IMG/VR virus record: IMGVR_UViG_3300025127_000014 | Source: an uncultured virus (IMG/VR IMGVR_UViG_3300025127_000014) | Taxonomy: Duplodnaviria > Heunggongvirae > Uroviricota > Caudoviricetes | DNA: 64,000 nt | Direction: 5' to 3' (one strand) | Shown: positions 5,466 to 50,764 of the stretch, one piece after another | Layout of the letters: every line of letters begins with the position of its first letter | How positions within the stretch are numbered: the stretch's first letter is position 1 | Position numbers and translations under genes: made by a program | Notes under the pieces: generated by a model | The model's input: only the letters and a program-made list of their open reading frames with translations | The model's database searches: none | What the model was told of the DNA's origin: nothing

Positions 5466-6500
5466 ATGGCTTTTTTAGATAACAGCGGCGATATTATACT
5501 TGACGCCGTTTTAACAGATTTAGGTCGAAAAAGGATGGCAGAGGGTAATTTTAGAATTACACAATTTGCGCTTGGGGATGATGAGATTGATTATAGAATT
5601 TATAACAAAAACCACCCATCAGGTTCTGCTTATTATGACTTAGAAATTTTACAGACTCCTGTTCTTGAAGCTTTTGCTTCTTCGAACGCTAATATAAATT
5701 ATGGTCTTGTTAGTTTTGGTGGTAATTTAAATCTCCTTTATATGCCAAATATAAAAATTTGGGGAAATCCAAAAACAGTAGGTGTAGCCGATGGCAAGCA
5801 AATTTTAAGAGCGAGTGGCAGTGTATACTATATGTCTGCAAATACTGATACGTCGACGGCATTAGTTTCTGCATTTGATACTGATTATGGAACAGGAAAC
5901 GGTACCTTTTATTATTCTTCTGATGACAATGCCAATGTAATATTGCTTGAAACTGGTATAGATTCCCCCGGTGGTTTCCCACCTAGGACAGCGGATTTAA
6001 CAAATGAACGTGATAAGATAATTGCCAAAGGCTTAGCTGATGGCAATTTTGATGTTCATATTGACACGAATATTCTCACTAAAGTTGTAGGTATTAGTAA
6101 TATAGTTTGGGACATAAAAACTGACGGCACCGTTGAGACAGCCATTAGTGGACTCAACGCCATCGACGCTAATATATCAAGTGATCTTGGAATGGCTAAT
6201 TATGCCAAAGCCACAATTAGCGGCCACAGGACCAGAGTCCGCGCCACAACCGATGGCACCACAGCTACTTCTTATTCAGCTATTAATGGCCCTTCAGGAC
6301 AAATGGTAGCTTTTACACTTGAGCCTAATAGCAATCTCAAACAAAGTTCTGCGGATTATGCTAAATATGGTAAAACCGGACAAGATCTATTTGGGGACGG
6401 TAACACATATGATTATGTTGACACAACTGTGTATGTCGTAGGAAAATCTTCAGGTGTAACTGCACATGTGCCAGTTAGAGTAGTAAGAAAGGTAGTTTAA
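5466..6500 (+). CDS. Putative baseplate / tail-fibre attachment protein
   Basis: N-terminal DAVLTDLGRKRMAEGNFRITQFALGDDEIDY resembles the first half of tail-collar (P2 gpH N-terminal-like) domains; late box upstream. Confidence 0.55.
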   Translation: MAFLDNSGDIILDAVLTDLGRKRMAEGNFRITQFALGDDEIDYRIYNKNHPSGSAYYDLEILQTPVLEAFASSNANINYGLVSFGGNLNLLYMPNIKIWGNPKTVGVADGKQILRASGSVYYMSANTDTSTALVSAFDTDYGTGNGTFYYSSDDNANVILLETGIDSPGGFPPRTADLTNERDKIIAKGLADGNFDVHIDTNILTKVVGISNIVWDIKTDGTVETAISGLNAIDANISSDLGMANYAKATISGHRTRVRATTDGTTATSYSAINGPSGQMVAFTLEPNSNLKQSSADYAKYGKTGQDLFGDGNTYDYVDTTVYVVGKSSGVTAHVPVRVVRKVV

Positions 6501-6515
6501 TAATGGAGAAACATA

Positions 6516-7640
6516 ATGCCTAATCAATATCAACCGTTTAATGCTAGTAACGATATCATTTCAACAAAAACGCTTTTACACGAAGCGATTCCCATGACTA
6601 GCTCAATTTATAAGTTTGCCACGGGCTCTTATGTTGAAGAAAATATTAAAAACTTTAGCCATGGACAATTTCAATCTGTATACGATTATCCCTACTTAAG
6701 TTCATCTGCAAATCATATATTTGATATAGCGGTAGGATATGACGAAGGTTCTGTGTTATCAAGCTCTACGAGTATTCAAAACGCTAAGAAAATTAACATG
6801 TACAACTCAATGGCTCAAGTGCTTTTGGGTTATAGTAAAGATTCTGGCGAGTTCGTAGAAAGGTTTGAGTCAGATTTTGATCTTTCTGATAATAACAATC
6901 AAATGCTCTCAACCTTCTTTATCAACTTCTCTAGACTTTTGACAAAAGATCAGATTAAGAAAGGATCGTTTAGTATAACATTAGCTACCGGTTCTTGGGA
7001 AGATGCTGCGATCGCCGGCGAAGTTTTAACTTTGGCAGATCACGACGCTACAGCAGATAGCGGTTATAGAACAGTTGTCGGTGGAGATTATGGATTATTA
7101 TACACTGCCTCAGCTCCATCGGCCGACCTTGCGAATTCTCCCGCTTTTGGCTGCATTTTCTACCAAGCCGGCATTGCTGTTCTTACATCTTCATTGTTTC
7201 AAGCCACTGCATCCGCCGGCGAGGCGTTTGAGGACCATCCAGAGGGCGCAGGCCAAGACTTCTCACGACAACGTGGCGATTTGGGCGAAAGTTGCAAGTC
7301 GATGCTGGGGGTTTTGACTGGTTCATCAATCTCAGGTGCCTGTAACGCACTACGTCACAGAATTACTAACATCGCATTCAACAATACCACTGAGATTAAT
7401 TCTAAAATTTACTTCTGCAGGGTGCCTTGGAATAAATTCAATTATAGTACTAATCCAACATATGTGTCTGGTGGTGCTATAGTTGTTAAAAATGTCCCCG
7501 CTGATACTCCTATTACCTACATCACAACTATTGGACTTTACAATACTGCTGGTGAATTGATGGCAACTGCTAAACTTTCTGAGCCACTGCGTAAAGATCC
7601 AACAAACGAATTAACTCTCCGAGTTAGGCTGGATTACTAA
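6516..7640 (+). CDS. Putative baseplate / tail-fibre attachment protein
   Basis: C-terminal TYITTIGLYNTAGELMATAKLSEPLRK resembles the IGLFD..G.L.A strand of tail-collar domains; GGAG RBS. Confidence 0.55.
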   Translation: MPNQYQPFNASNDIISTKTLLHEAIPMTSSIYKFATGSYVEENIKNFSHGQFQSVYDYPYLSSSANHIFDIAVGYDEGSVLSSSTSIQNAKKINMYNSMAQVLLGYSKDSGEFVERFESDFDLSDNNNQMLSTFFINFSRLLTKDQIKKGSFSITLATGSWEDAAIAGEVLTLADHDATADSGYRTVVGGDYGLLYTASAPSADLANSPAFGCIFYQAGIAVLTSSLFQATASAGEAFEDHPEGAGQDFSRQRGDLGESCKSMLGVLTGSSISGACNALRHRITNIAFNNTTEINSKIYFCRVPWNKFNYSTNPTYVSGGAIVVKNVPADTPITYITTIGLYNTAGELMATAKLSEPLRKDPTNELTLRVRLDY

Positions 7641-7649
7641 GGGGGTAAT

Positions 7650-8969
7650 ATGTCCCTCAAGAAGTTTTCGGACAAAGATATCATAATCAACACCATGAGG
7701 ACTCATCCGCGGGTTGATTTCTTGATATTCGATAGTCGCGTATTTTATAACAATATTCCAGAGCAGTCTGGTGCTATTTCAAACGATGTTTATAATGTTC
7801 CAGAAGGGCACATTAGTCTTTATGAATATAACATTGATAGGGTTATTGATAGAGGCACAATCCCCGGCCGGCCATCTGATTCAAAATGTATATACCCTTT
7901 TATAACTAAACAATCTGCTAGGGCTAGCTTTCGCACAGCGTCTCCAACAAGTTACAGTAATGAATTTGTATATGGTGACATTATAACAAGTAGTTATCCA
8001 ATGTCTGCATCGATACACAGATATTATATGGCTAATGCGGGCGCCCGAGACACCGTTGTAAATGACAATACGGGCGAAAGAACATCAACCGGCAAACCTT
8101 TACACCCATTTTATTTTGCTTTAAAAAATAGATTAAATTTTTATGGTGCAACTAAAAGTAGACATTTTTTAATTGAGGATGCTGGTGGTGACACAGGATC
8201 TGCTGGGGCCACAACTCTTGCTGGTGATTACTGGGATTGGAATAAAGATAATCAGACTATAAACCTTATTTCAATACCTTCAATCTTTTATGGTACAAAA
8301 ATTAAGCCCGGCTCTGTTTCTTTGAAATGGTTGTTTACCGGTTCAGTGGTGGGCGAGTTAAGAGATTTAAAACAAAATGGCGAATTAATACAAATTGGCC
8401 CTTATGGTAGTGTTGGCTCCGGTTCTGTTGCTGGTGTTGTGATGTACGATGAAGGATTTGTACTTTTAACAGGTTCGTGGACTTTGGGTGATGGTGCACC
8501 AAGTATACCAATAAAAAGCGATGCGTCAAGCGATAGACCAAGATGGATTTATTTCGGCGCCGGGACTCTTGATGGAGTAAATCAAACAACAGCCGGCGCT
8601 GATTTTGTATCAGCATCATTTAACATGTCATTTAGAGGTCAAACTGATACTCAAATTGTAACGATGTTTGCTCATGCTAAGCGCGGTGAAGTCAATTATT
8701 CAAATAATCCAACGTTTATAAAGCACGGACAACGAAAAATAGAAATTTCATCGTCTACGATTTTTCAAGAAAATCCAAATAAGCTTATTGCTAATACTGT
8801 TTCATCAAGCTATCCGGATCATAATGCAGATTTTAAACGACAAGTTTATATATCAAGAATCGGTATATATGATGAAAATAAAAATTTAATTGGCTTGGCT
8901 ACTCTTGCCAATCCTATTTTGAAAGAAGAAGCGCAAGATTTTGCATTTAAGTTAAAGATAGATATATGA
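7650..8969 (+). CDS. Putative baseplate / tail-fibre attachment protein, paralog of the preceding gene
   Basis: C-terminal YSNNPTF...VYISRIGIYDENKNLIGLATLANPILK matches YSTNPTY...YITTIGLYN of 6516..7640. Confidence 0.55.
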   Translation: MSLKKFSDKDIIINTMRTHPRVDFLIFDSRVFYNNIPEQSGAISNDVYNVPEGHISLYEYNIDRVIDRGTIPGRPSDSKCIYPFITKQSARASFRTASPTSYSNEFVYGDIITSSYPMSASIHRYYMANAGARDTVVNDNTGERTSTGKPLHPFYFALKNRLNFYGATKSRHFLIEDAGGDTGSAGATTLAGDYWDWNKDNQTINLISIPSIFYGTKIKPGSVSLKWLFTGSVVGELRDLKQNGELIQIGPYGSVGSGSVAGVVMYDEGFVLLTGSWTLGDGAPSIPIKSDASSDRPRWIYFGAGTLDGVNQTTAGADFVSASFNMSFRGQTDTQIVTMFAHAKRGEVNYSNNPTFIKHGQRKIEISSSTIFQENPNKLIANTVSSSYPDHNADFKRQVYISRIGIYDENKNLIGLATLANPILKEEAQDFAFKLKIDI

Positions 8970-9310: not shown

Positions 9311-9311
9311 A

Positions 9312-9869: not shown

Positions 9870-9894
9870 CACCTTTAACGTTATGTGTTATTTT
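9866..9894 (+). promoter_or_regulatory. Sigma70-type promoter
   Basis: TTGACA-N17-TATTTT with TG extension, upstream of the FKBP gene. Confidence 0.65.
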
Positions 9895-10500: not shown

Positions 10501-10502
10501 TT

Positions 10503-32803: not shown

Positions 32804-33583
32804 ATGGGATACAATGTCTTATCGGGAAACGTATTACTTCCCGGTCAATTGCTGGCTGATGGGCAAGTTTCTTCTAGTGCTTTTGTAGGTGACGGCAAAG
32901 AGTTAGAGCATGTTTTAAAAATTACATCTAATCCAGATCAATATAATTTAACAACTATTGGAGCAGATGCTTATAAATTAACTGGCGAATCAAATCTTAC
33001 ATTTAATGGCGGTACAAACACGCTGACCGTTACAGGTGAAATTTCAGCTAGTGTCGGAATATCATCATCGTTTTTTATTGGAGATGGTAGGTTTTTGACG
33101 AATGTGCCTGTTAGGGGTGGGATATTCAATGAATTAACTAACAACCTAGCAGCGACCACAAGCAGTATTGCTGTTGGCGGAAGTACAGCCCCTGACCATG
33201 CTGTTGCCGTTAGTGGTGCAATGTCAGCCAGCTTAAATGTTTCTGCCTCTGGATTTGTGGGCGGCAGATTACATATATCAGGTGCGGTTGTTTATCATCA
33301 CAAAACTTCAACCGCAACTATGACTGCTTCAGTGGATGATTTTTATATTGGAATGGATTCAACAGCAGGTGCTATAGAACTAAGATTGCCTGATGCCGCT
33401 GTTTTGACAGACGGTCATACTTACATAATTAAAGATGAGGGTGGCGAAGCAGGTACGAATAATATAACAATTTTAGCCTCTGGATCTCAAACAATCGACG
33501 GTGAAAATTCACTAGTTTTGGAGTCGTCTTATGCATCTCTTTCGCTTTATTGTAATGGCTTCGATCGGTACTATGTTTACTGA
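32804..33583 (+). CDS. Fibre/decoration-like virion protein 2
   Basis: C-terminal LRLP...IKDEGG...TIDG...SLYCNG domain; GESNLTF motif. Confidence 0.65.
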   Translation: MGYNVLSGNVLLPGQLLADGQVSSSAFVGDGKELEHVLKITSNPDQYNLTTIGADAYKLTGESNLTFNGGTNTLTVTGEISASVGISSSFFIGDGRFLTNVPVRGGIFNELTNNLAATTSSIAVGGSTAPDHAVAVSGAMSASLNVSASGFVGGRLHISGAVVYHHKTSTATMTASVDDFYIGMDSTAGAIELRLPDAAVLTDGHTYIIKDEGGEAGTNNITILASGSQTIDGENSLVLESSYASLSLYCNGFDRYYVY

Positions 33584-33671: not shown

Positions 33672-35294
33672 ATGGCTTATAAATTTCAATTTGGTACCAC
33701 CAAACTCAGCGGTTCAACGACATTCGAAGAAGCGCTAGTTGGTGAGTCCACAATCTCAGGTTCAGGAAGACTTTCTGGTAAAGAACTTATTCTTGACGCT
33801 GCAGGTGTTATTGGTACTAGCGCTGACGCTGATCTCATAACACTTACCACCGACAAAGTTACTGTTGCCGGTGATCTTTCAGCCTCTATTGATCTTCAGG
33901 CTGAATCTGTTGTAATTAAACAAAATGGTAGACTTGGTGTCCGAGGCGACATCGACCTTATAACGCTTTCCCCTAACAACGTTGTGGTTGCTGGTGCTCT
34001 TTCAGGCTCTGGCGCTGGCTCTATTGGCGGTGCTCTTAAGGTTGGTGCTGGAACAAGTGGTGTTATCGGAATCGAAGATGATTCAGATCTCTTAACTTTG
34101 TCAGCAGATCTTCTTACGGTCGCTGGTGGCGTCAAAGGCACTACGCTTTCTGGCTCTAGCACTTTAAGTGTTGTTGGAGCTTCTACATTCGGTCCCGGCG
34201 AACTCGCTAAGATTTCTGCTGCCGGTGTTTTCTCAGGTTCTGGTGTTTCTACACTTAGTGGCCTGACTGCTGACGCAGTTACAGTCGGCACTGCTACAAT
34301 TAGTGGTGGTACTCTTTCAGGCTCAGTTGTTTCTGGTGCTGCTGGTCACTTCCTTGACCTTTTTGCTGGCGACCTTACCGTCGACGGTGCATTCGCTGCA
34401 TCAACTCTTTCAGCTTCTCTCGGTATTACCGGTAGCTCGTTAGAGATCTACGCTGAAGGCGGTGGCGGAGTGCCATTCTTCGAAGCACAGAACGGTATCC
34501 TTTCTGCTTCTGGTGTCTCCACACTTTACAGTGTAACTTCTGATGCACTTATTGCTCAAACTGCTGACATTAATGGGGGTACTCTTGATGACGTTATTAT
34601 TGGTGGATCTAACACAGCTTCTGCTAAGTTCACAACTCTTTCAGCTTCAAGCACTTTAAACGTTGTTGGTGCTTCTAACTTTGGTCCTGAAAACAAGGTT
34701 CAGATCTCTGCTGCTGGTGTTGTTTCTGGTTCTGGCGACTCGACACTTCACAAGTTGTCCTCTAACCAGCTTGTCTATGGCTCCGCTTCTCTTAACGGAC
34801 CACAGTACATTAACAAGTTGGCTACTTCGGTCGACGAGATCATGGGCTTAACCACTGGTAGTATTCTCTACCACGATGAAGCGACTGGCTTACAGAAGCT
34901 TGGTTCATTCTCAAGCTATGCTTTGGCTCTTGCGGGTACAGGTATTACTGCTACTGACGGTGTTCTTTCTGTTGATACCACCGGTGGTGACAGTGTTTCT
35001 GCTACTCACATCCCAGAAGCTGCCTATGGTAACCATACGCTTACTGTTGGACTTAACTTCATGACTGTGGCAGCAACTGGCTCTTGTAGCTTCTTGCTTC
35101 CTTCCGGCTCTGCTGGTGATGTTGTCATTGTTAAGACAGCTGCTGATGTTAGCTCAACTAACTTCGTTAAAATCTCATCTTCTGTTGCTACTGGCGACGA
35201 AATTGATGGTTTCTCTGAAGCACGTATCGAATCACCATTCGGTGCTGTATCGTTGATTTACTCTAACTCTGATGGCAAGTGGGTCATCTACTAG
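33672..35294 (+). CDS. Fibre/decoration-like virion protein 3 with internal repeats
   Basis: Three DL(I/L)TL...VAG repeats, two TTLS(G/A)SSTL.VVGAS.FGP repeats and the shared C-terminal IDG...W domain. Confidence 0.7.
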   Translation: MAYKFQFGTTKLSGSTTFEEALVGESTISGSGRLSGKELILDAAGVIGTSADADLITLTTDKVTVAGDLSASIDLQAESVVIKQNGRLGVRGDIDLITLSPNNVVVAGALSGSGAGSIGGALKVGAGTSGVIGIEDDSDLLTLSADLLTVAGGVKGTTLSGSSTLSVVGASTFGPGELAKISAAGVFSGSGVSTLSGLTADAVTVGTATISGGTLSGSVVSGAAGHFLDLFAGDLTVDGAFAASTLSASLGITGSSLEIYAEGGGGVPFFEAQNGILSASGVSTLYSVTSDALIAQTADINGGTLDDVIIGGSNTASAKFTTLSASSTLNVVGASNFGPENKVQISAAGVVSGSGDSTLHKLSSNQLVYGSASLNGPQYINKLATSVDEIMGLTTGSILYHDEATGLQKLGSFSSYALALAGTGITATDGVLSVDTTGGDSVSATHIPEAAYGNHTLTVGLNFMTVAATGSCSFLLPSGSAGDVVIVKTAADVSSTNFVKISSSVATGDEIDGFSEARIESPFGAVSLIYSNSDGKWVIY

Positions 35295-35385: not shown

Positions 35386-37404
35386 ATGGCTTATAACATC
35401 ATCAAAGGTAAAGTAGAGTTCTCCAACTCAACAACCGGCTCAGTCGAAAGTTTAGTAGATATCTGGAGAAATCAAACAATTGGAGGCACTAAAACTTTTA
35501 CTAGTAACATTACATCTAGTGGTTACTGGGATTCAACTCGCAATGCAAAATTAGAACCTTTATCTACATTGATTGCCGCTGACGGAGCGGATCGGGTCTT
35601 AACTTCTGATGGCGACGGAACGCTCACAGCTGAGTCAAGTGTGACTATTACGACGGCTGCTAGTGCTACAAGCTTAAGCGTGGATGGCCATATAACCGGC
35701 TCAACTTTCTCTGGCTCTGCTCATGGTTTAACCGGAATTATATTAAATAAAGATCATCTTGCAACAATTAATTACGATGGCTTGGCCAACAGATTATCAG
35801 CATCAAATATTGTTTTGGGTCTTGGTATTTCTAGTAGCGTTGATCCCGCCGGCCTTGGTCATGGTTCTGAATTACAGGTTACCGGCGGTCAAGGTATTGC
35901 TGTTGACACAGAAGGTGTCCGTGTTTTGACCGCTTCAAATGGTGGATTAGCATTCACAGGTTTAACTTTACAGGTGGATGCTTCTAAGACTTCAAACAAA
36001 GGCGGAGGTCCATCTAACAATGATGCATTTATAATTGCTGACTCCGGTGACAGCAGTGCAATTAAGAATCTAACATATAGTCAAATTAAAACAGCAATTA
36101 CTGATAGTATCTCATCGGCGGCTATCACAAGTTATACTAACAGCGGCAACGATAGGCTCGTGACGTCAGTAAACAGCACAACTGTTAATGGTGAAGCAAA
36201 TCTTACTTTTGATGGTAGCGTTCTTTCTGTAAGTGGAAATTTAAGTGTTAGTGGTGCCACCGATACACCTACGTTATTTGTAAAACCGGGTGGTGCTAGT
36301 TTTGGTAAAGTAGGTATTAATAACGATGATCTGGGTGTTACACTGACGGTTACAGACAATGGTGCGCCAGCCACACTTGGATTACATAGAACATCTTCAG
36401 CTTTCTATATTGATGGAGATGATATCGGTGATGTTGCCTTTGTTGGTTCTGCACTTGGAGAAGTTTTATCGGTTTCGTCCAGAATCAGAGTCGAAGCCGA
36501 CGGTTCAGAGTGGAACAATGAATCATATCCAACTCGTATGTCATTTTGGACAACCTTAACAGGAACCTCTACACCCGTACAACACATGGTAATTAACAAT
36601 TCTGGTAATGTTGGTATTGGTATAACTGGCTCTGCTCCAAATAGTAAACTGCACCTCTCTGGCAATTTAACAATACAAGCAACAAATCCAAATATACATT
36701 TTAGTAGTAGTACTGGTGAAGATTTAGCTGAAATTGGTGTCAACGACTCTGATAATATTTTAATTCAAAACAACACTACAAATAAACACATTGTGTTTAA
36801 GACCAATGACGCTGGTTCAATGAAAGAGGGTCTTCGGATTGATGGTGCTGTGCCGGAAGTTGTTGTTAACCAAGGCTCGGATTCATTGATTGATTTCCGT
36901 GTAGAGAGTAATAACAATACTCACATGCTTATGGTTGATGGTTCCGGTGATAAAGTTGGTATTAATGTCGACGTACCAACACATACATTGACTGTGGTTG
37001 GTGACGCCTCGATATCTGGCCATTTAACTGCTTCCGTAGGTTTGGTTGTTACTGGTTCGTCGTTGGTAAGTGGTTCTGTGAGAACAAGTTATAAACTCAG
37101 AGAATCAGCAGGATCTTATAATGTTCCAGAAGATACAAGTGTTATAGTATTTAATAACGGCTCATCGCACACAGCGGTCCTGCCACCAATTACAAATATA
37201 AACGATGGGATACAATATTATTTTAAAAACATCGGATCTGGCGGTGTAACAATTACTGGCTCGACAATAGCTGCAGCAGGAAATGAACAATTTATTGATG
37301 GCCAGCAAACATTTGCAATCACGCAGGGTGAAGCTGTAAAACTTATAGGCTTCAAACTTCTTGGCGCATTTGAGTGGGCGGTATTATCTTTTAGAGACGT
37401 ATAA
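35386..37404 (+). CDS. Fibre-like virion protein 4
   Basis: GNVGIG/KVGIN fibre-shaft repeats, GEANLTFDG and the shared C-terminal LP...KN...IDG...W domain. Confidence 0.7.
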   Translation: MAYNIIKGKVEFSNSTTGSVESLVDIWRNQTIGGTKTFTSNITSSGYWDSTRNAKLEPLSTLIAADGADRVLTSDGDGTLTAESSVTITTAASATSLSVDGHITGSTFSGSAHGLTGIILNKDHLATINYDGLANRLSASNIVLGLGISSSVDPAGLGHGSELQVTGGQGIAVDTEGVRVLTASNGGLAFTGLTLQVDASKTSNKGGGPSNNDAFIIADSGDSSAIKNLTYSQIKTAITDSISSAAITSYTNSGNDRLVTSVNSTTVNGEANLTFDGSVLSVSGNLSVSGATDTPTLFVKPGGASFGKVGINNDDLGVTLTVTDNGAPATLGLHRTSSAFYIDGDDIGDVAFVGSALGEVLSVSSRIRVEADGSEWNNESYPTRMSFWTTLTGTSTPVQHMVINNSGNVGIGITGSAPNSKLHLSGNLTIQATNPNIHFSSSTGEDLAEIGVNDSDNILIQNNTTNKHIVFKTNDAGSMKEGLRIDGAVPEVVVNQGSDSLIDFRVESNNNTHMLMVDGSGDKVGINVDVPTHTLTVVGDASISGHLTASVGLVVTGSSLVSGSVRTSYKLRESAGSYNVPEDTSVIVFNNGSSHTAVLPPITNINDGIQYYFKNIGSGGVTITGSTIAAAGNEQFIDGQQTFAITQGEAVKLIGFKLLGAFEWAVLSFRDV

Positions 37405-38815: not shown

Positions 38816-40702
38816 ATGGCTGGTATTATTGAAAGATTGACCGAAGGTGTTGTCAATCGTGATATGCGTGCCGAAGGTCACGCCCTACTGTCAAAGTGGG
38901 AAAAGACCGGACTCTTAGAGGGTCTCGATAACGAGCGTTCCAAAAACGGTATGGCTCGTCTTCTTGAGAACCAAGCTAAGGAGCTTCTTCGCGAAGCAAG
39001 CGCAATGAACGCTGGAGATGTACAAGGTTTCGCATCTGTCGCATTCCCTATCGTTCGTCGTGTATTCGCAGGCTTGATCGCAAACGATCTTGTTTCTGTT
39101 CAACCCATGAGCCTCCCAAGTGGACTCATCTTCTTCCTTGACTTTACGTTCTCGGGAGATCTCGGTGTTGGTTCTCAAGACGGTAAGTTTGGAAACCTTG
39201 CTGGACAGTCCATTTATGGTACTGATCGTGTTGGTGCTGCAATCACTGGTGGTGTCGATCTTGTAAGTGCTGCTGGTGCTGACCTTTCTGGTCCACGCGC
39301 ATCGGCCCGTGGTTACTCGTATGGTTCGCCATCTGGCTCGACTCACTTGAGAAGTACTTTTGTTACTGCTTCTAGCATCTCGTTAGCAATGACTGACAGA
39401 GACAAAAAGAACATCCAATACGATCCAGATCTTCTGGCTCTTGGTGCTGATTCTCTTTCGTTCGCAAACGCTACACATGCTTATGCGATTATTCGTGTTT
39501 CTGCATCGTTATTGGATCAACTTGATCTTAACAACCTTTCTGCAATCACATCGTCTGCAGCTGCCCTTAAAGGCTTCTCTGCTATTGGTACTGTAGGTGA
39601 CGATGCTGTTTGTACTAAGGGAGCACAAATGGTTCGTCGCTTGACGCGCCCACTTCCGTTGAGTGGTGATGCCGATCTTGGTTCTCAAGACCGTCACGGC
39701 AACATGGTGCTGCTTACTATCGTTGGTCAAACCGGTTCGACGGGTGCTGATGAAGTTCGTGCCGCAGGTGTTGAGTACGGTGGAGTGGTTCCGCGATTTG
39801 ACCATACTGCTTCTGCTGCGCATGGTCTTAGCCTTGAGTTCCCACAAACTGATGACTTTGCTAATGGCGACAATGCTATTGGTTCTATCCAAGGTCAAAC
39901 TGTTTGGGGTCTTGAAGGTCAGCCGGGTATCCCCGAGATTGACATCAAGGTTGACAGTATCGCTGTTACCGCTCAAACTAAGAAGCTCAAGGCTAAGTGG
40001 ACTCCGGAGTTAGGCCAAGACCTTAACGCCTACCACAACCTTGACGCTGAGGTCGAGTTGACCAGCATCCTTTCGGAGCAAATCGCTCTCGAAATTGATC
40101 GTGAGATTGTTGCTGATCTTGTCAACGGTGCTACTGCTGCTACCTACTACTGGTCGCGCTCCCCCGGTCTTTTCGTAGATAAGACTAGCGGAGTCGAGCT
40201 TGGTGCATCTGCAGCTGCTCCTGACTTCACCGGTACTGTATCCGAGTGGTATGAGACTCTTGTTGAGACAATCAACGATGTGTCTGCGCAAATTCATCGC
40301 AAGACTCTTCGTGGTGGTGCTAACTTCATCGTCTGTGGACCTGAAGTTGCCAACATCCTTGAGTTCACCGCTGGATTCCGTGCTAGCGTAACCGCTGATG
40401 CAGAGACTGGTTCAATCGGTGCTGTAAATGTTGGCTCACTGAGCAAGAAGTTCGATGTTATCGTCGATCCATACTTCCTGCGTAACGTGATCCTCGTTGG
40501 TCGTCGCGGATCCTCTTTCCTTGAGAGCGGATATGTGTACGCACCATACGTGCCACTGCAAACCACTCCTACGATCTTCGGACCAGAAGACTTCGTACCA
40601 CGTAAGGGTGTCATGACCCGTTACGCGAAGAAGATGGTTCGTCCAGATATGTACGGACTCGTGATTTGTCGCGGACTGTTGGGTGAATCTGGCGGTACTT
40701 GA
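38816..40702 (+). CDS. Major capsid protein (T4 gp23-like)
   Basis: LLENQ, FPIVRRVF, VSVQPM, KLKAKWTPELGQDLNAYH, EIDREI, GYVYAPYVPL and GVMTRY; strong RBS and biased codons. Confidence 0.97.
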   Translation: MAGIIERLTEGVVNRDMRAEGHALLSKWEKTGLLEGLDNERSKNGMARLLENQAKELLREASAMNAGDVQGFASVAFPIVRRVFAGLIANDLVSVQPMSLPSGLIFFLDFTFSGDLGVGSQDGKFGNLAGQSIYGTDRVGAAITGGVDLVSAAGADLSGPRASARGYSYGSPSGSTHLRSTFVTASSISLAMTDRDKKNIQYDPDLLALGADSLSFANATHAYAIIRVSASLLDQLDLNNLSAITSSAAALKGFSAIGTVGDDAVCTKGAQMVRRLTRPLPLSGDADLGSQDRHGNMVLLTIVGQTGSTGADEVRAAGVEYGGVVPRFDHTASAAHGLSLEFPQTDDFANGDNAIGSIQGQTVWGLEGQPGIPEIDIKVDSIAVTAQTKKLKAKWTPELGQDLNAYHNLDAEVELTSILSEQIALEIDREIVADLVNGATAATYYWSRSPGLFVDKTSGVELGASAAAPDFTGTVSEWYETLVETINDVSAQIHRKTLRGGANFIVCGPEVANILEFTAGFRASVTADAETGSIGAVNVGSLSKKFDVIVDPYFLRNVILVGRRGSSFLESGYVYAPYVPLQTTPTIFGPEDFVPRKGVMTRYAKKMVRPDMYGLVICRGLLGESGGT

Positions 40703-40872: not shown

Positions 40873-41484
40873 ATGGGAAGTAAAAGAGTTGGTCTCGCGA
40901 GAATCGAGGCCCTATTGGAAAATTTAAAAAGAGAAATCAAACTTGGCGCCGGATCGAGCTGGGTAACAGATAAATTGATTCTGTCTGAATCTGGTACTTC
41001 AGTCTTAAGTGAGACTGTTTCTACCGGAACATCTGGCACAATTGCTGTCACTAAAAATGTAAATAACAGCATTGAAATTTCACAGCCCGCGGGAACTTAT
41101 ATAAAAGAATTAGTATGTATTCCGGCCGGTAACATTGTTACTGCTGGCAGTTCAGGTGATGATTTTGATGTTAGTATCGGTACGTCCGAACACGGAGAGC
41201 AAATTTTGGCTCTTAAAGCACTTTTGGATGACGGTGGCTCTGCTGTTACTTGGGCAGCCAACACACCACTTCAACTTATTGCAAACGGCAAAGGTAAAGG
41301 GTCAAATCACTTTGCCACTATTCCGGGTGGTCCAGCTACAAATGAAGCATTAGATCTTGCCGCTACCACTTATAGTGGGAGTGCTAGAACGTTATACTTA
41401 AACTTTAAAGCTCCTAACAGTGGAAGCAACTTAGCTACTGCTGCTACGACAATTAAAGTAATTGCTGTATTCCACACAATCTAA
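40873..41484 (+). CDS. Putative capsid decoration protein
   Basis: Beta-rich 203 aa immediately after the capsid gene; ACTAATTA variant box at 40801, GGAGG RBS, own terminator. Confidence 0.55.
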   Translation: MGSKRVGLARIEALLENLKREIKLGAGSSWVTDKLILSESGTSVLSETVSTGTSGTIAVTKNVNNSIEISQPAGTYIKELVCIPAGNIVTAGSSGDDFDVSIGTSEHGEQILALKALLDDGGSAVTWAANTPLQLIANGKGKGSNHFATIPGGPATNEALDLAATTYSGSARTLYLNFKAPNSGSNLATAATTIKVIAVFHTI

Positions 41485-42018: not shown

Positions 42019-43296
42019 GTGCCTACAAATTTAAGTCCAAAATCACAAACAAGTGCGATTATCCTTACATCGACTGGTTCTGCAGAAGAAGTTGTATCAG
42101 CCGTACCATTTGGCATGTACACAGGCTCGGCAGCATTTCGCAGTGGCGCGTCTGATCAAGTAGCTTACGTATATAAAAAGCTCGGCGGCGACGTTGTTGA
42201 TATTGAATTGACCCCGGCTAATGTTTATGCGGCATATGAAGAAGCAGTGCTTGAATATTCGTATATATTTAATCTTCACCAAGGTAAAAATGTTATTTCA
42301 GATGCCTTGGGTGATGTGACTGGCACATTTAATCACTTAGGCCAACGCACTTCAGGGCCTGCCAGCGCGAGTTTGAGATTCCCTCGAATTGAGGCTAATT
42401 ACACTAATAAAATTGCCGATGGTATGGCCACAATGGCTGGTGTTGGTGGGACCACTACAATTTATTCAGGCTCGTTTACAACCACTAAGAATCAACAAGA
42501 TTATGATTTGCAAAAAATTATTTCAGACTCATCAGCGTCTGGACTAAACGACAACGGTGATGCCGTTGATTATTCAGGAAAAGTCACAGACAAAAGAATT
42601 ATTATAGATAAAGTATATTATCGTTCGCCAATAGCAATGTGGCGATTTTACGGCTACTACGGGGGCGTAGGTGTTGTGGGCAACTACCAGACTTATGGAC
42701 AATACGCAGATGATACTACATTTGAAATTGTTCCAACATGGCAAAACAAACTTCAAGCTATTATGTATGAAGATTCTTTGTACACAAGAGTTTCACACTA
42801 TTCATATGAATTAATAAACAATAAATTAAGACTATATCCTGCTCCAAGGGGAGAAGACAATTTTGCTGGCTACTTGGACAGAATTTGGTTTAAATTTAGA
42901 ATAAAATCTAGTATTTTTGAAGAAGAAGGTGATACAGATACGGGTATTGAAGGAATCAACAACCTTAACACACTTCCATTTGACAATATTCCTTATGAAA
43001 ATATCAATGCTATTGGTAAGCAGTGGATCAGGAAATATGCATTAGCTCTTTGCAAGGAAATGTTGGGCCAGATTAGAGGTAAATTTACAACAATTCCGAT
43101 TCCCGGTGAAAGCGTGACTCTAAACCATTCTGAGTTGTTATCTCAAGCAAAAGAAGAACAACAACAGTTAAAAGATAAGCTAATGGAAATTCTTAAAGAA
43201 GTTGAGTACCCAGAATTAGCCAAAAAAGATCAGGAGAAGGTCACTGCAGCAGAAGAAACCTTACGCCGTTCACCGCTGCCAATATTTGTAGGATAG
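42019..43296 (+). CDS. Neck / head-tail adaptor protein (T4 gp13-like)
   Basis: KKLGGDVVDIELT, WIRKYALALCKEMLGQIRGKF and IPGESVTLN; position after the capsid gene. Confidence 0.85.
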   Translation: MPTNLSPKSQTSAIILTSTGSAEEVVSAVPFGMYTGSAAFRSGASDQVAYVYKKLGGDVVDIELTPANVYAAYEEAVLEYSYIFNLHQGKNVISDALGDVTGTFNHLGQRTSGPASASLRFPRIEANYTNKIADGMATMAGVGGTTTIYSGSFTTTKNQQDYDLQKIISDSSASGLNDNGDAVDYSGKVTDKRIIIDKVYYRSPIAMWRFYGYYGGVGVVGNYQTYGQYADDTTFEIVPTWQNKLQAIMYEDSLYTRVSHYSYELINNKLRLYPAPRGEDNFAGYLDRIWFKFRIKSSIFEEEGDTDTGIEGINNLNTLPFDNIPYENINAIGKQWIRKYALALCKEMLGQIRGKFTTIPIPGESVTLNHSELLSQAKEEQQQLKDKLMEILKEVEYPELAKKDQEKVTAAEETLRRSPLPIFVG

Positions 43297-44755: not shown

Positions 44756-47722
44756 ATGTCAGTTAAAAGTTTTAAGTTTGTATCCCCCGGCGTCTTTATC
44801 AATGAGATTGATAACTCATTTATTCCAAGACAGCCAGATGCGATTGGTCCAGTAATTATTGGTAGATCAGCCCGAGGTCTTGCATTGCAGCCGACTAAGG
44901 TTGAATCCTACTCTGAATTCGTGACTCAATTCGGAGATACGGTTGCCGGTGCAGGCGGCGGAGATGTCTATAGAGACGGTAATTACCAGTCTCCAATGTA
45001 TGGTACATACGCCGCAAAAGCGTTTCTGGATGCAAAAATTGCACCTGTTACATTTATCAGGCTATTAGGGCACCAAACAACCGCCGGTAGTGCGGCTGGT
45101 GGTGCTGCAGCTTGTGGTTGGAATCTAAGTGGTAGTGCCACAACTGATCCAAACACAAATGGTGGCGCATATGGTTTATTTATTGCTGCATCTGGTGCTT
45201 CTGGTGATCAGAGAAACATGGGTAATCTGTATCAGGCAGCTACCTTTTACTTAAATTCTGGTAAGATGTTCTTAAGCGGCGCAGTGGTCTCGGGTTCAGG
45301 CGAATCGACTGCTGTCTCCAACACGGCTATGGGTACTCACACAGTTATTGAGTGTGGGGGTGATGGTATATTTACAATGGTGATTTCATCAAGCGCTGAA
45401 GGCAAGTCGGATGGCGTGTCAAAGCTGGAAACCATCAAATTTACTTTAGATCCAAATAGCGATGATCACTTACGTAAAAAATTCAACACTAACCCGCAAT
45501 TAGCTAGTGCAAATGTTACAAGTTTTTATCCCGCTGCAACCCGCAAAACTTATTGGCTTGGGGAGTCATTTGACCAAGCAATAAGGGCTCAGGGTCTTCA
45601 TGCAACAGGTAAAAAGCGTGCTATTTTAATCCCAATTGGAAGAAACACGACTGCTCAAAACCCTAGCTACATGAAAGGCCAAGCATCGAATGAGGGCCGC
45701 GCTGGATGGTTTATTGGTCAGGACACAGGTGAGTCCGGTGTTTATGAGCCTGAAAACATGCAAAAACTTTTCCGTTTAATTGGTAGAGGACATGGCGAAT
45801 GGCTTCACAAAAACTGCAAAGTCTCTATTGAGAAAATAAGACAATCAACAACTCCTAGCACGAATCCATACGGTTCCTTTTCAGTTGTAATTCGTGATCT
45901 TTACGACACTGACGCAAACGTGACTGTTTTAGAAAGATTTGACCGCTGTAATTTAGATCCTGCATCTCCAAATTATATTGCTCGCAAGATTGGAAATCAA
46001 TATGCGGAATGGAATGATGCGGAAAAAAGACTTAGAGTTTATGGCGAATATCCAAATCAATCAAAGTATGTTTATGTTGATATGAACGAGGATGTTGAAA
46101 ATGGTTCTACTGGATATCCTGAACTGCTGCCATTTGGTTATTTTGGTCCACCTAAGCCAAGAGATATGATAAGCGTAACAGGTTCAGGGCCCATGACTGG
46201 CGAAGATTGGTTTACACCCGGTCAACAAACTGTTTTAGCTCCACAAGGCACAGGTAGTAATAAAGCCGGCATTTTTAAAGAGCAAGCATTTACTGCATTC
46301 TTGTCCGGTAATATTGGCTCTAATAATGGACCGCCGGCCGCGCTAGCTAACGGCGAGTTGACAGGTTCGTTTATTTTCCCGTCTTCGTCGCTTAGAATTT
46401 CGGCATCAGATGGAGGGCTTAGAAATCCAAAACGTGCCTACTTCGGCTTTAGCTCTAACCAGAGCCCTAGCAAAAATGTCGCTGATAGAAGTGTCGCTGA
46501 TTTCCATAGACTACCGTTCGCGGGCTATTTTGGTGATCCGACTACTGAGCTTCATATTAAAAATGGAGTCGAAGGTTGGTCTTATGTCTTCTCACTTGAT
46601 GACATTAACGCAAATTACGCGTACCAGTCAGGTTCAAGAAAAATTGGAGAATCAAAAACTTCAGGCTCCTATACTGATATTTTAAATGCCGGCTACAATA
46701 AGTTTACGGCACCGTTCTGGGGTGGTTTCGACGGATTTGATATTTTCCACCCTGATCCACTTTATAATGGAGCACTGTCTACATTGTCAACTGAAGACAA
46801 TAGCTATGTGTACGCCACATGGCGCCGAGCGATTGACACAGTTTCTGATCCTGAACAACTTGATATGAATCTTTTGGTAGCCCCCGGTTTGACTAACGAC
46901 AGTCTTACTGAGCGTATGGTTGACGTGTGCCAAGAACGCGCTGATTGCTTGGCTCTAATTGATCTACCAGATGTATATATTCCTCCACATGAGCAATACT
47001 ACTCTGATAAAAAGAGCAGAATTGGCACCACCCCACGCGGTGCTGCGCGTCAACTCCGCGACAGAAGGATTGATTCATCATATGGAGCAACGTTCTATCC
47101 TTGGGTACAAACAAGGGATGAAAACACAGGACAATTAGTATGGATCCCACCATCTGTGGCTGTACTTGGTGTTCTCGCTAGCTCAGAAGCTAAAACTGAT
47201 GTATGGTTTGCACCAGCCGGCTTCAACCGCGGCGGTATTGGCCAAGGTGCTGCTGGAATTCCAATAAGCAAAGTAAGTCAAAAATTGACTTCCAAAGATA
47301 GAGATGTTTTATATGAATATAACATTAACCCAATTGCATCATTCCCAAGTTCTGGAATTGTGCTCTTTGGCCAAAAAACGCTTCAAGAAAGACAGTCTGC
47401 ATTAGATAGAATTAATGTTAGAAGACTAGTGATTTACTTGAAAAAACAAATTTCTATTTTGTCAACTCAAGTTCTTTTTGAGCAAAATGTTCAAGCAACT
47501 TGGAATCGTTTTAAGGGATTAGTTGAACCATTCCTGTCAAATGTAAAGACTAGATTCGGTATTACAGACTACCGTTTAATTCTCGACGAAACGACAACTA
47601 CCCCTGACTTGATTGACCAAAATATCATGTACGCAAAAATTATGATTAAGCCGGCTAGAGCCATTGAGTTTGTTGCCATCGATTTCGTAATTCTCAACAC
47701 TGGTGCTTCATTCGATGATTGA
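44756..47722 (+). CDS. Contractile tail sheath protein 1 (gp18-like)
   Basis: SPGVFINEID N-terminus; WFAPAGFNRG, INPIASFP, GQKTLQ, DRINVRRL and KPARAIEFVAIDF. Confidence 0.95.
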   Translation: MSVKSFKFVSPGVFINEIDNSFIPRQPDAIGPVIIGRSARGLALQPTKVESYSEFVTQFGDTVAGAGGGDVYRDGNYQSPMYGTYAAKAFLDAKIAPVTFIRLLGHQTTAGSAAGGAAACGWNLSGSATTDPNTNGGAYGLFIAASGASGDQRNMGNLYQAATFYLNSGKMFLSGAVVSGSGESTAVSNTAMGTHTVIECGGDGIFTMVISSSAEGKSDGVSKLETIKFTLDPNSDDHLRKKFNTNPQLASANVTSFYPAATRKTYWLGESFDQAIRAQGLHATGKKRAILIPIGRNTTAQNPSYMKGQASNEGRAGWFIGQDTGESGVYEPENMQKLFRLIGRGHGEWLHKNCKVSIEKIRQSTTPSTNPYGSFSVVIRDLYDTDANVTVLERFDRCNLDPASPNYIARKIGNQYAEWNDAEKRLRVYGEYPNQSKYVYVDMNEDVENGSTGYPELLPFGYFGPPKPRDMISVTGSGPMTGEDWFTPGQQTVLAPQGTGSNKAGIFKEQAFTAFLSGNIGSNNGPPAALANGELTGSFIFPSSSLRISASDGGLRNPKRAYFGFSSNQSPSKNVADRSVADFHRLPFAGYFGDPTTELHIKNGVEGWSYVFSLDDINANYAYQSGSRKIGESKTSGSYTDILNAGYNKFTAPFWGGFDGFDIFHPDPLYNGALSTLSTEDNSYVYATWRRAIDTVSDPEQLDMNLLVAPGLTNDSLTERMVDVCQERADCLALIDLPDVYIPPHEQYYSDKKSRIGTTPRGAARQLRDRRIDSSYGATFYPWVQTRDENTGQLVWIPPSVAVLGVLASSEAKTDVWFAPAGFNRGGIGQGAAGIPISKVSQKLTSKDRDVLYEYNINPIASFPSSGIVLFGQKTLQERQSALDRINVRRLVIYLKKQISILSTQVLFEQNVQATWNRFKGLVEPFLSNVKTRFGITDYRLILDETTTTPDLIDQNIMYAKIMIKPARAIEFVAIDFVILNTGASFDD

Positions 47723-47745
47723 TGATTCACTAGTATTTTTAAGAC

Positions 47746-47753
47746 ACTATTTA
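47746..47753 (+). promoter_or_regulatory. Putative late promoter box ACTATTTA
   Basis: Between the two sheath genes. Confidence 0.7.
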
Positions 47754-47776
47754 AAATATAAAAGGATAAACCCAAA

Positions 47777-50764
47777 ATGTCAGTAAAAAGCTTCAAATTT
47801 GTATCCCCCGGAGTTTTCATCAACGAGATTGATAACTCGTTCATACCTAGAAGACCAGAGGCAATAGGGCCTGTAGTTATTGGCCGCGCTCGTAGAGGTC
47901 TTGCTATGACACCAGTAACATTAGAATCATATTCTGACTTTGTTACTGAGTTTGGCGAAACAGTTGCTGGTGCTGGTGGCGGTGACATTTATCGCGATGG
48001 TAATTACCAATCACCAATGTATGGCACATACGCTGCAAAAGCATTCTTGCGTTCTAATGTTGCGCCGGTCACATTTGTTAGACTATTGGGACACCAAACA
48101 AATACTGGTAAATCAGTTGGTGGTGACGCCGCGGCCGGCTGGAAAACTTCAAACCAGCCAAATGCTTCTGTTGGTTCAAATGGTGGTGCGTTTGGTCTTT
48201 GGATTTTTCATTCTGGAGCTACCAGTGATATAGGAACTGGAAGATTGGCTGCTGTTTGGTACTTAAATAAAGGAAAAATGTTTTTAAGTGGAAATATTGC
48301 TTGTGTAGACGGTGCTCCATCAACAGATCGAGGTGCCAAAGGAAATCATACTGTTATTGAGTCTGATGCTCAAGGCCATTTCAATCTTTTCATATCAGGC
48401 ACCATGCCAGAAGAGGCTATATCTTTTGGATTTGATGACACACAAGAATCGTTCTTGCGCAAAAGATTTAACACTAATCCACAGGTTGCATCAGACTCAA
48501 CATCGTTATTCTTCCCTGCCTCTGCTAGAAAAGATTATTGGCTTGGTGAGTCTTTTGAGCAGGCCTTGAGAAGAGACGGATTTACTTCAACAACAAATCT
48601 TTTTGGTGTTCTAGTACCATTAGGTGGCCACTCAGCAGCCGGCGGCCAAGATACTGATCTTGACCCTAGTAATATGAAAGCTCAAGAAGCAAGAGAGGGT
48701 GTGGCCGGCTGGTTCATTGGACAAGATTTAGGAGACGCAGGTTCTTACGAGCCTCAAAATGCACAAAAATTATTCCGGCTTCGAGGCCGCGGCCATGGTG
48801 AGTGGCTTCACAAAAACTGTAAAGTTTCAATTGAAAAAGTAAGGCAGTCTACAACTACTAGCAGCCCTTATGGTTCATTCTCAGTTGTTATAAGAGACAT
48901 AAAAGACACAGACAGCAGGGTCGTGGTCCTAGAGCGTTTTGATAATTGCAATCTGGACCCGAGATCTCCAAACTACGTTGGCCGTAAAATCGGTACCGAG
49001 TATGTAGAGTTTGATAAAACAGAAAAGCGATTAAAAACTTACGGCGATTATCCTAATCAATCTAAATACGTATATGTTGAAATGAATGATGACGTTGAAG
49101 CTGGCGCAACAGATTCGACGCTCATACCTTTTGGTTACTATGGTCCTCCAAAGCCCGCTGATTTCACTGTTTCAGGATCCAGCCTTGGCTCTATTCATGT
49201 GGCTGTAGCTCAAGAAAGGTTTGTCTTAGATGGAAGGTATATTGTTGCTGGCGACAAAAACGATGTAGCTCAAGGTGTGGATGCGTCTGGTAACTGGCCA
49301 GCCTTCTTGTCGGCTAGTGTTGGTGCTGGATCACCCGGCGAAGGGGCTGTCGATGCTCAAACAGCGGACGGTGCTCAAGATGGTAATGCTTTGACTGGAA
49401 CGCTTGCGTTTCCAAGTTCATCGATTAGAATATCAGCTTCTGATGGTGGCCTTAGAGACCCAACTAATGCATACTGGGGATTTTCATCAACAAGACTGGC
49501 TTCGTCAACACGACCAGACGCGAGTTTAGCTGATTTCCATAGATTACCGTATGCAAATTTTGCTAATGATCCAACAACCGAAGCTTTCAACAAAAATGGA
49601 ATTCAAGCATGGTCATACATATTCTCAATGGATGATGTTACCTTGTCGGGATCTGCATACTACTATTTGTCCGGCTCTCGTAAAAATGGAGCGTCTGCTA
49701 CAAGTTCGTCATATACTGATATTTTAAACGCTGGTTATAACAAGTTTACGGCACCATTCTGGGGCGGATTTGATGGCTTTGATATTACCAAGCCAGATCC
49801 AACTTTCAATGCCGGAATGACTGCGACATCGAATGAAGATAATAACTATATTTATCACACTTGGAGACGCGCGATTGATATTGTTTCTGATTCTGAAGAC
49901 TATAACATGAACGTTTTGACTGCACCGGGCTTAACTCAAGAAGGGTTAACTGCTCACATGATTGACGTTTGTGAAGAAAGAGGCGACTCGTTAGCGCTCA
50001 TTGATCTTCCAGATGTTTATATTCCACCACACGAAGCTTATCACGCTTCTAAAAAGGATCGACTTGGCACTACTGTTGATGGAGTATCTAGACAATTAAG
50101 TGATAGAAGGCTTGATTCATCATACGGTGCAACTTTCTACCCATGGGTTCAGACTAGAGACGAAAACACAGGACAATTAGTGTGGATTCCGCCTAGTGTT
50201 GCTGTGTTGGGAGTGCTTGGAACTTCTGAAGCTAAAACTGATGTTTGGTTTGCTCCTGCTGGATTCAACCGCGGAAGCCTGACGGCTGGAGCGGCCGGTA
50301 TTCCGATTGTCAACGTTACTGAGAGATTAACTTCGGATGATCGCGACACACTTTATGAGTACAATATCAATCCAATTGCTTCCTTCCCAAGCTCTGGAAT
50401 TGTGTTATTCGGACAGAAAACTCTTCAAGAACGCGAATCCGCCCTCGATAGAATTAATGTACGTAGATTGGTTATTTACTTGAAGAAGCAAATTTCAATT
50501 CTTTCGACTGAGGTTCTTTTTGAACAAAATGTTCAAGCGACTTGGAACAGATTCAAGGGTCTTGTAGAGCCATTCCTTTCGAATGTCAAAACAAGATTCG
50601 GAATCACAGATTACAGGCTTATCCTCGATGAGTCTACCACAACCCCTGATCTTATTGATCAGAACATTATGTATGCGAAGATAATGATTAAACCAGCAAG
50701 AGCTATCGAATTCATTGCCATTGATTTCGTGATTCTTAACACTGGCGCGTCATTTGATGACTAA
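47777..50764 (+). CDS. Contractile tail sheath protein 2 (gp18-like)
   Basis: Same motifs as sheath 1; collinear full-length paralog. Confidence 0.95.
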   Translation: MSVKSFKFVSPGVFINEIDNSFIPRRPEAIGPVVIGRARRGLAMTPVTLESYSDFVTEFGETVAGAGGGDIYRDGNYQSPMYGTYAAKAFLRSNVAPVTFVRLLGHQTNTGKSVGGDAAAGWKTSNQPNASVGSNGGAFGLWIFHSGATSDIGTGRLAAVWYLNKGKMFLSGNIACVDGAPSTDRGAKGNHTVIESDAQGHFNLFISGTMPEEAISFGFDDTQESFLRKRFNTNPQVASDSTSLFFPASARKDYWLGESFEQALRRDGFTSTTNLFGVLVPLGGHSAAGGQDTDLDPSNMKAQEAREGVAGWFIGQDLGDAGSYEPQNAQKLFRLRGRGHGEWLHKNCKVSIEKVRQSTTTSSPYGSFSVVIRDIKDTDSRVVVLERFDNCNLDPRSPNYVGRKIGTEYVEFDKTEKRLKTYGDYPNQSKYVYVEMNDDVEAGATDSTLIPFGYYGPPKPADFTVSGSSLGSIHVAVAQERFVLDGRYIVAGDKNDVAQGVDASGNWPAFLSASVGAGSPGEGAVDAQTADGAQDGNALTGTLAFPSSSIRISASDGGLRDPTNAYWGFSSTRLASSTRPDASLADFHRLPYANFANDPTTEAFNKNGIQAWSYIFSMDDVTLSGSAYYYLSGSRKNGASATSSSYTDILNAGYNKFTAPFWGGFDGFDITKPDPTFNAGMTATSNEDNNYIYHTWRRAIDIVSDSEDYNMNVLTAPGLTQEGLTAHMIDVCEERGDSLALIDLPDVYIPPHEAYHASKKDRLGTTVDGVSRQLSDRRLDSSYGATFYPWVQTRDENTGQLVWIPPSVAVLGVLGTSEAKTDVWFAPAGFNRGSLTAGAAGIPIVNVTERLTSDDRDTLYEYNINPIASFPSSGIVLFGQKTLQERESALDRINVRRLVIYLKKQISILSTEVLFEQNVQATWNRFKGLVEPFLSNVKTRFGITDYRLILDESTTTPDLIDQNIMYAKIMIKPARAIEFIAIDFVILNTGASFDD

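Follow-up and report, generated by a model that had tools for sequence, protein, structure and literature searches.

What accounts for the abundance of the tripeptide [S/T]-[G/A]-S in virion proteins encoded by the window, the whole 64,000-nt stretch of DNA analysed here? Over all 57 window proteins the motif occurs 93 times, against 39 expected. When all tripeptides in these proteins are ranked, SGS comes first (35 occurrences against 11.4) and TGS second (27 against 9.3), and each has a lower p than the most significant tripeptide seen across 100 shuffled proteomes; TAS, taken singly, is not enriched in the window (rank 2042). Permuted versions of the word are flat, with [ST][GA]T occurring 30 times against 33 and S[ST][GA] 41 times against 40. 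Local and strand-parity shuffles give 24–29 motif sites (maximum 43) where the real sequence has 84, and those 84 sites comprise 68 distinct 9-mers, which rules out a DNA-level repeat as the source. On the basis of the 9-mer diversity, the flat permuted words and the shuffles we conclude that the motif is a protein-level, order-specific feature. The possibility that composition explains the excess, raised in the preliminary description, is refuted by the shuffled proteomes and by the local and parity shuffles. None of the papers searched mentions the motif.

The sites are spread over proteins of the baseplate region, fibres, capsid, neck and sheaths (Table 1); in non-virion window proteins the motif is not depleted (8 against 9.3). 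A recount bears out the preliminary description, which gave hand counts for the 540-aa fibre-like protein (17), the sheaths (8 and 5), the neck protein (5) and the capsid protein (6), and reported zero sites in the SbcCD, terminase, tail tube and tape measure proteins. Its statement that the conserved C-terminal sheath domain is motif-free also holds: the last sites fall at residues 636 and 632, and the Pfam sheath domains begin at 694 and 703. The proteins encoded between 5466 and 8969 had been called motif-rich as a set, which is true of the second and third genes; for the first the count is not significant. Homologues of that first protein in immuto lie between baseplate wedge and tail fibre/spike genes; atlas matches to the second are unnamed viral clusters.

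Table 1. Motif-bearing proteins of the window and their [S/T]-[G/A]-S sites.
Feature	Coordinates	Strand	Sites	Expected	Remarks
Baseplate-region protein	5466..6500	+	2		p 0.2, singly non-significant; no match in family search
Baseplate-region protein	6516..7640	+	5	1.3	structural role inferred from synteny
Baseplate-region protein	7650..8969	+	7	1.1	
Small putative decoration/fibre protein	31568..32032	+	5	0.4	role inferred from head-module position
Putative short fibre	32036..32767	+	7	1.4	
Fibre-like protein	32804..33583	+	5	1.3	PHROG 972 tail fibre, E 3e-5
540-aa fibre-like protein	33672..35294	+	17	4.8	no match in family search
672-aa fibre	35386..37404	+	10	3.7	PHROG 9942 tail fibre, E 4e-9
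Major capsid protein (gp23)	38816..40702	+	6	1.7	
Capsid insertion	39332-39814	+	5		residues 173-331; sixth capsid site at residue 531
Putative decoration protein	40873..41484	+	2		non-significant
Neck/head-tail adaptor (gp13-like)	42019..43296	+	5	0.7	
Tail sheath 1	44756..47722	+	8	2.4	all N-terminal of conserved sheath domains
Tail sheath 2	47777..50764	+	5	2.6	residues 466-632; singly p 0.11, non-significant

By its sequence the window phage is a Far-T4 (RM378/immuto-like) myophage. It has a T4-like gp23/gp20/gp17 module and a long capsid insertion, and its capsid is closest to the RM378 type: of 2588 records with a capsid match, the seven best belong to Mel-JY01, immuto (4 records), LR756508 and RM378, and the Far-T4 node receives 99% on a quick tree. 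Many core genes have no family match, and GroEL-like genes are common to relatives. The motif is clade-wide, three cultured phages included; the spike gp101 of immuto alone contains 53 sites. Its proteome ratio is 1.44–2.35 in all nine clade members (the window plus eight genomes bearing the glycosyltransferase pair described below) and 0.79–1.33 in six T4-like phages that lack the pair; control words reach ratios of up to 1.3. XacN1, which lacks the pair, has a ratio of 1.30 overall and 1.69 in its S/G/T/A-rich proteins.

Within individual proteins the placement of sites is strongly uneven. In 75 diverse capsid proteins the insertion holds 218 motifs against 75 and the core 24 against 34; a further 62 capsid proteins give 252 against 57 and 10 against 36, respectively. 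Among 35 sheath homologues the N-terminal part contains 274 against 95 and the C-terminal part 5 against 15. In both proteins the motif sits on the outward parts, the capsid insertion and the N-terminal sheath region, whose exposure is suggested by domain position, and is scarce in the conserved cores. Individual sites turn over: 245 capsid sites are distributed across 58 alignment columns, a single one of which is occupied in half of the sequences, and 12 of the 75 diverse insertions have zero sites; one insertion site, at window residues 173-175, is kept in 61 of 70 capsid proteins. In conserved columns S and T, and G and A, swap freely, but position 3 is serine 466 times against 76 for threonine. 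In an alignment-based capsid model of medium confidence (pLDDT 62, against 32 for single-sequence AlphaFold), which Foldseek matches to T4 gp23 at low TM, four of the five insertion sites lie inside beta strands or at strand termini.

The preliminary description proposed that a phage enzyme encoded outside the window modifies the motif, having seen no such enzyme inside it. Family searches likewise show no glycosyltransferase gene in the 64,000 nt. Relatives possess a fixed, adjacent pair of GT4 genes (GT-a and GT-b) at the head of a hypervariable, soluble sugar cluster. At loci anchored on an independent PD-(D/E)XK nuclease gene, which GT-a follows, the pair is found in 57 of 60 cases, the other three being truncated; the two genes are adjacent in 72 of 76 loci (one non-adjacent, three truncated). 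The pair is present in all six long records chosen by capsid alone, and in the cultured phages immuto, Mel-JY01 and RM378. For both proteins the top PDB match is the chlorovirus glycosyltransferase B736L (GT-a, E 8e-14 over nearly the full length; GT-b, E 1e-6), and both retain the E-x7-E signature. Downstream lie nucleotide-sugar epimerases, GDP-mannose dehydratase, aminotransferases, methyl-, formyl- and sulfotransferases, and further glycosyltransferases of families GT2, GT4 and GT15.

That part of the proposal which concerns enzymes outside the window is borne out in relatives, where the glycosyltransferases co-occur with the motif; their presence in the window's own genome, and the modification itself, we infer. 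Synteny with one relative, G002, suggests that the pair lies about 50 kb upstream of the window. A metagenomic contig (L427) that overlaps the window by 146 bases, 145 of them identical, extends 10 kb upstream and carries three genes, all structural, and no glycosyltransferase; one has 10 motif sites against 2.9 expected. Two scans of viral contigs for the window's upstream DNA gave no match. G030, G031 and G032–G037 were rejected as upstream extensions, G035 being identical yet lying inside the window.

Because motif and genes are both inherited, the co-occurrence test rests on two independent losses (quick tree). In two lineages loss of the pair accompanies loss or change of the motif, and T4-like outgroups lack both. 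The first is a nested jumbo subclade, in which the pair occurs in none of 12 records. In two complete genomes of this subclade [ST][GA]S[^T] has ratios of 1.09 and 1.04, and [ST]GxT ratios of 2.3 and 3.2. The second is LR756508, which keeps GT-a and has largely lost the motif; its ratio of 1.39 is diffuse, no single protein being enriched. A distant GT-a-like gene (E 8e-4) persists in G019, as do GT-c homologues. Among close relatives the nuclease-anchored loci yielded no loss of the pair, and so no short-range replicate; a search for loci of the motif-less capsid P0021 returned none.

Given its over-use on outward proteins and its tracking of the pair, the motif is probably the address of a self-made sugar coat. 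We consider it likely, from the association of motif and genes, that [S/T]-[G/A]-S serves as a sequon at which a phage-made glycan is O-linked to the virion. From the observed motif, its domain position and turnover, the gene pair and their co-occurrence we infer a soluble, phage-encoded cytoplasmic system that reads the motif, usually after a hydrophobic residue. GT-a and GT-b, predicted to adopt the GT-B fold, would attach the first sugar or sugars to a motif hydroxyl, most likely that of the near-invariant serine at position 3; the fast-changing downstream cluster would assemble a strain-specific outer glycan. The outcome would be a sugar coat over capsid, neck, sheath, baseplate and fibres.

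Could the tripeptide instead be a structural idiom, a beta-strand or turn cap that the fibre and insertion folds of this clade favour, with the sugar cluster merely co-inherited and serving another role? Most of the motif excess follows a hydrophobic residue at −1 (62 against 15), sites fall at strand ends in the capsid model, some are fully conserved (residue 150 of the neck protein in 60 of 60 homologues), and the independent losses number just two. However, the motif spans unrelated folds, and S/G/T/A-rich proteins of T4, Melnitz, P-SSM2 and Cr30 have ratios of only 0.8–1.2. Threonine suits beta strands, yet it is not enriched at position 3. Moreover, the jumbo-subclade homologues of the window's baseplate proteins change to [ST]GxT, the neck and sheaths of LR756508 have 0, 1 and 0 sites, and the parity shuffle gives 29 sites against the real 84. 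A structural idiom is therefore unlikely.

It is also improbable that the motif is read by something other than the GT4 pair, be it a kinase, a transferase of acyl groups or phosphosugars, an O-glycosylation enzyme of the host, or the phage chaperonin. GT-a without a clear motif in LR756508, the GroEL-like genes and the unmatched core genes would accord with such a reader. Against it, the motif is constant across widely differing recorded hosts (Flavobacterium, Rhodothermus, Microcystis), and other modification words are flat in the window: D-[ST]-x, a Bacteroidota word, occurs 63 times against 72, and the N-glycosylation word N-[^P]-[ST] 152 times against 154.

That the cluster acts on phage DNA or the host surface, with the motif unrelated, would fit the DNA or serotype targets of most characterised phage glycosyltransferases (accessible part of PMC12619734), the position of GT-a behind a nuclease gene and the weak GT4-conflict matches of both proteins, but is highly improbable: it leaves the motif unexplained, a scan of 22 G002 cluster proteins matched none of the families of flippases, polymerases or undecaprenyl-phosphate transferases, and four of five genomes lack a thymidylate-synthase-family gene, the fifth having immuto's annotated ThyA. 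LC-MS of immuto DNA gave only dA, dC, dT and fdPreQ1, and the available text reports no sugar-modified nucleoside (10.1101/2023.04.13.536721); T4-type DNA glucosylation would call for such a glycosylated base and for a hydroxymethyl-pyrimidine synthesis gene, and neither was seen. A Tet_JBP search was negative in all five, as was its control.

Several known systems resemble the predicted O-glycosylation. GtfA and GtfB, an adjacent GT4 pair, O-glycosylate serine-rich repeat adhesins at a Ser-rich acceptor word, and variable glycosyltransferases lie downstream. The Far-T4 loci share the adjacent GT4 genes, the Ser-rich word and the variable downstream genes; their candidate acceptors, however, are dispersed sites in folded domains rather than repeats, and neither GT-a nor GT-b belongs to these families by sequence (no NCBIfam match at cut-off; PDB matches to Gtf1 weak, E 0.001–0.007). 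The E-x7-E signature kept by both Far-T4 proteins is a further difference. Mycobacteriophages, tailed phages too, glycosylate their virions with phage-encoded glycosyltransferases (Freeman et al. 2023), placing the glycans on the C-terminal ends of capsid and tail tube subunits (both as cited in the part of PMC12619734 available). The predicted Far-T4 sites are instead many, internal and defined by a short word, cover capsid insertion, neck, sheath, baseplate and fibres with none in the tail tube, and are accompanied by the relatives' own sugar pathways. Chloroviruses likewise use soluble virus-encoded enzymes on their capsids (B736L/A546L), but they are eukaryotic viruses with N-glycans, and the match to B736L, whose acceptor is not established in the accessible sections of PMC9614988, is distant. 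Moraphages combine a T4-like structural module with four core glycosyltransferase orthogroups; no motif is named in the text of PMC12619734 at hand. Far-T4 phages themselves are described as having a T4-like structural module and long, variable insertions in the capsid protein that modelling places on the exterior, and the available text of PMC4360716 contains no occurrence of 'glycos'.

A stronger version, to which we give even weight for and against, is that these phages carry complete, host-independent, sequon-directed O-glycosylation, in which an initiating core GT4 pair reads the motif and the hypervariable cluster lends every strain a 'serotype' of its own, with thousands of glycans on each particle, and that lineages replacing the initiating enzymes rewrite the sequon throughout their structural proteins, as [ST]-G-x-T in the jumbo subclade. 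If the sequon reading is true, a common aquatic phage group bears a glycan coat whose code is a legible three-letter word, and its glycosylation sites would be predictable from sequence. It would give a purpose to large sugar clusters usually classed as host-manipulation or DNA-modification genes, and would provide a soluble enzyme that O-glycosylates proteins at a short sequon, of which RM378 would offer a thermophilic form.

The preliminary description had counted the tripeptide [S/T]-[G/A]-S (SGS, SAS, TGS or TAS) in virion proteins and proposed it as a candidate glycosylation sequon; all of its counts proved correct on recount. To avoid choosing a motif after the fact, all tripeptides were ranked over 57 window proteins against per-protein shuffles. 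The comparison with shuffled proteins, which the preliminary description had itself suggested, placed SGS first, TGS second and SAS 20th, and the four words together occur 93 times against 39 expected. Related words occur about as often as expected ([ST][GA]T 30 vs 33; S[ST][GA] 41 vs 40; [ST]S[GA] 40 vs 39), and N-x-[ST] is not enriched in the same proteins (152 vs 154). The 13 proteins classed as outer hold 84 sites (23 expected), 11 inner virion proteins 1 (6.8 expected) and 33 others 8 (9.3 expected), a grouping made with the counts already seen and in which at least six of the outer proteins were assigned by synteny only. Shuffling within windows of 10–50 residues, or with strand parity kept, gave 24–29 sites (maximum 43) in place of 84; a first-order Markov model, which itself includes the motif, gave 41. 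With 68 different 9-mers among the 84 sites, the signal lies at the level of protein.

A family scan of open reading frames identified the 64 kb window as the module for the structural proteins of a T4-like myophage, with genes for terminase, portal, prohead protease, gp23 capsid, neck adaptor, two sheaths, tube and hub; SbcCD, primase, a tubulin-like protein and a fragment of PolA are encoded there too. The capsid was compared with 50,697 annotated phage records, and its best matches, Mel-JY01, Flavobacterium phage immuto, LR756508 and Rhodothermus phage RM378, make the phage a member of the Far-T4 group. LR756508 also has two sheath genes; G002, the closest complete relative found (194 kb; capsid 79% and neck 89% identical), has one. 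The tubulin/FtsZ gene shares 86–90% DNA identity with four relatives (adjoining genes, ~70–80%), which suggests recent exchange or strong constraint. The PolA-like protein probably corresponds to divPolA1, a divergent form reported from phages related to immuto (10.1101/2024.04.26.591309). A leader like K-I-T-K-S-Q-L-K-Q-I-I-R/K-E-E is common to unrelated small proteins between 15900 and 22647, with many more copies in G002, and is a candidate capsid-targeting tag.

Features of the window (nucleotide positions)
Feature	Position
Two tandem full-length tail sheath genes	44756-50764
Tubulin/FtsZ-family gene	17735-18871
Short PolA-like protein	61251-62468
ORF with glycine-rich start resembling that of the tubulin/FtsZ gene; no family match	62465-63328
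Leader-bearing ORFs (starts)	15900, 17253, 20611, 21607, 22207
ORFs with similar starts	11505, 16351

The capsid insertion corresponds in place to the T4 gp23 insertion domain, and when PDB 8GMO is aligned its engineered acidic loop falls inside this insertion, in a part where the alignment is weak; Far-T4 capsid insertions have been modelled on the outside (PMC4360716). Across 75 capsids, the representatives of 50%-identity clusters left when the shorter of 150 retrieved were discarded, sites number 218 in the insertion against 75 expected and 24 in the core against 34; in 12 of the 75 the insertion has none. A further 62 capsid proteins gave 252 vs 57 and 10 vs 36, and 35 sheath homologues 274 vs 95 in the N-terminal and 5 vs 15 in the C-terminal part, although these related sequences do not yield independent counts. 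An AlphaFold model built from 66 sequences (pLDDT 62; 55–87 for most insertion blocks) places four of five capsid-insertion sites within strands or at strand ends.

The excess extends to relatives, with 1680 sites against 690 in the 80 closest loci and 1518 against 609 in 80 immuto-branch loci. The [S/T]-[G/A]-S feature is genuine and holds across the clade. A small number of sites are fixed (neck residue 150 in 60/60, capsid 173 in 51/60) and most are gained and lost: capsid sites occupy 58 columns, 48 of them in ≤10% of sequences, and sheath sites spread over 90. In conserved columns the first position is T 299/S 238, the second G 384/A 151 and the third S 466/T 76. Exchange at the first two positions with mostly serine at the third is the pattern expected of a sequon, and the third-position serine would be the likely acceptor.

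No glycosyltransferase family was matched among 58 window ORFs scanned. In G002 two adjacent GT4 glycosyltransferase genes, GT-a and GT-b, stand at the head of 22 kb of clustered genes for nucleotide-sugar enzymes and glycosyltransferases; among five complete genomes compared the pair is kept and the remaining genes vary. (Elsewhere in G002, 36–42.5 kb and 132.5–136 kb (L086/L087, L091/L092) hold no convincing ORFs, the rest being dense.) GT-b immediately follows GT-a in 72 of 76 loci. When an upstream nuclease gene is taken as an independent anchor, 57 of 60 loci carry both, the three exceptions being cut off within 2.6 kb. Both are likewise present in all six long records chosen by capsid alone. 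Strong GT-a matches make up seven of the 13 matching annotated-phage records, identical with the top seven capsid matches. GT-b is strongly matched in immuto and Mel-JY01, and distantly (E 3e-10) yet adjacent to GT-a in RM378. For both profiles the best PDB match is chlorovirus B736L, a proposed mannosyltransferase (PMC9614988). By synteny the pair would be expected ~50 kb upstream of the window; the 10 kb of upstream DNA reached is syntenic with G002.

Eight genomes with the pair have whole-proteome motif ratios of 1.44–2.19, and the window has 2.35; control words span 1.0–1.3. Neither gene was found in T4 (0.79), Melnitz (1.12), P-SSM2 (1.15; 248 of 252 kb), Cr30 (0.92; 134 of 156 kb), XacN1 (1.30; 191 of 385 kb) or LR756511 (1.33; 50 of 595 kb). 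Caulobacter phage Cr30 (L260-L266) has its own leading tripeptides, SNT (37 vs 13), ANT (27 vs 9) and NTA (24 vs 9), which may be a further lineage-specific motif, here in a phage that has been cultured. Within Far-T4, a subclade with 100% support in a quick capsid-core tree is almost without sites, and both genes are missing from 12 of its long records, three of them complete. In this nested jumbo subclade (G019 and G020, L508-L545; L287-L366) [ST]-G-x-T replaces [ST]-[GA]-S: over 80 loci [ST][GA]S[^T] stands at 1.2 and [ST][GA][^S]T at 2.3, and two complete genomes give 1.09 and 1.04 for [ST][GA]S[^T] and 2.3 and 3.2 for [ST]GxT, the latter word appearing on proteins homologous to those of the window's baseplate. 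LR756508, placed close to Mel-JY01 in the tree, carries GT-a without GT-b and has a proteome ratio of 1.39, with no enriched proteins (neck 0, sheaths 1 and 0, capsid 1). Behind its lone GT-a lies a large sugar cluster (307–325 kb, L102), in a genome without clear [ST][GA]S excess. Against a link between pair and motif, a gene distantly resembling GT-a occurs in G019 along with homologues of a further glycosyltransferase (GT-c), S/G/T/A-rich proteins of XacN1 reach 1.69, and there are only two losses (the nested subclade and LR756508). The main rival explanation, that the motif is a structural idiom, leaves unexplained both why homologous proteins change from one word to another and why the motif is absent from the fibres of other phages.

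The cluster might instead serve conversion of the host surface, but no membrane assembly genes were detected among 22 cluster proteins scanned. Glycosylation of DNA is an unlikely role, given that LC-MS of immuto DNA is reported to have yielded dA, dC, dT and fdPreQ1 (10.1101/2023.04.13.536721) and that immuto ThyA is the sole thymidylate-synthase-family gene found in five genomes.

A full-text search that covered few subscription papers returned no report of a sequon or virion glycan in the Far-T4 group and no paper joining 'Far-T4' with 'glycosyltransferase'. We consider it probable that [S/T]-[G/A]-S is a glycosylation sequon. The Far-T4 feature belongs neither to the virion glycosylation of mycobacteriophages nor to the GtfA/B system but would work in a manner similar to phage-encoded virion glycosylation.
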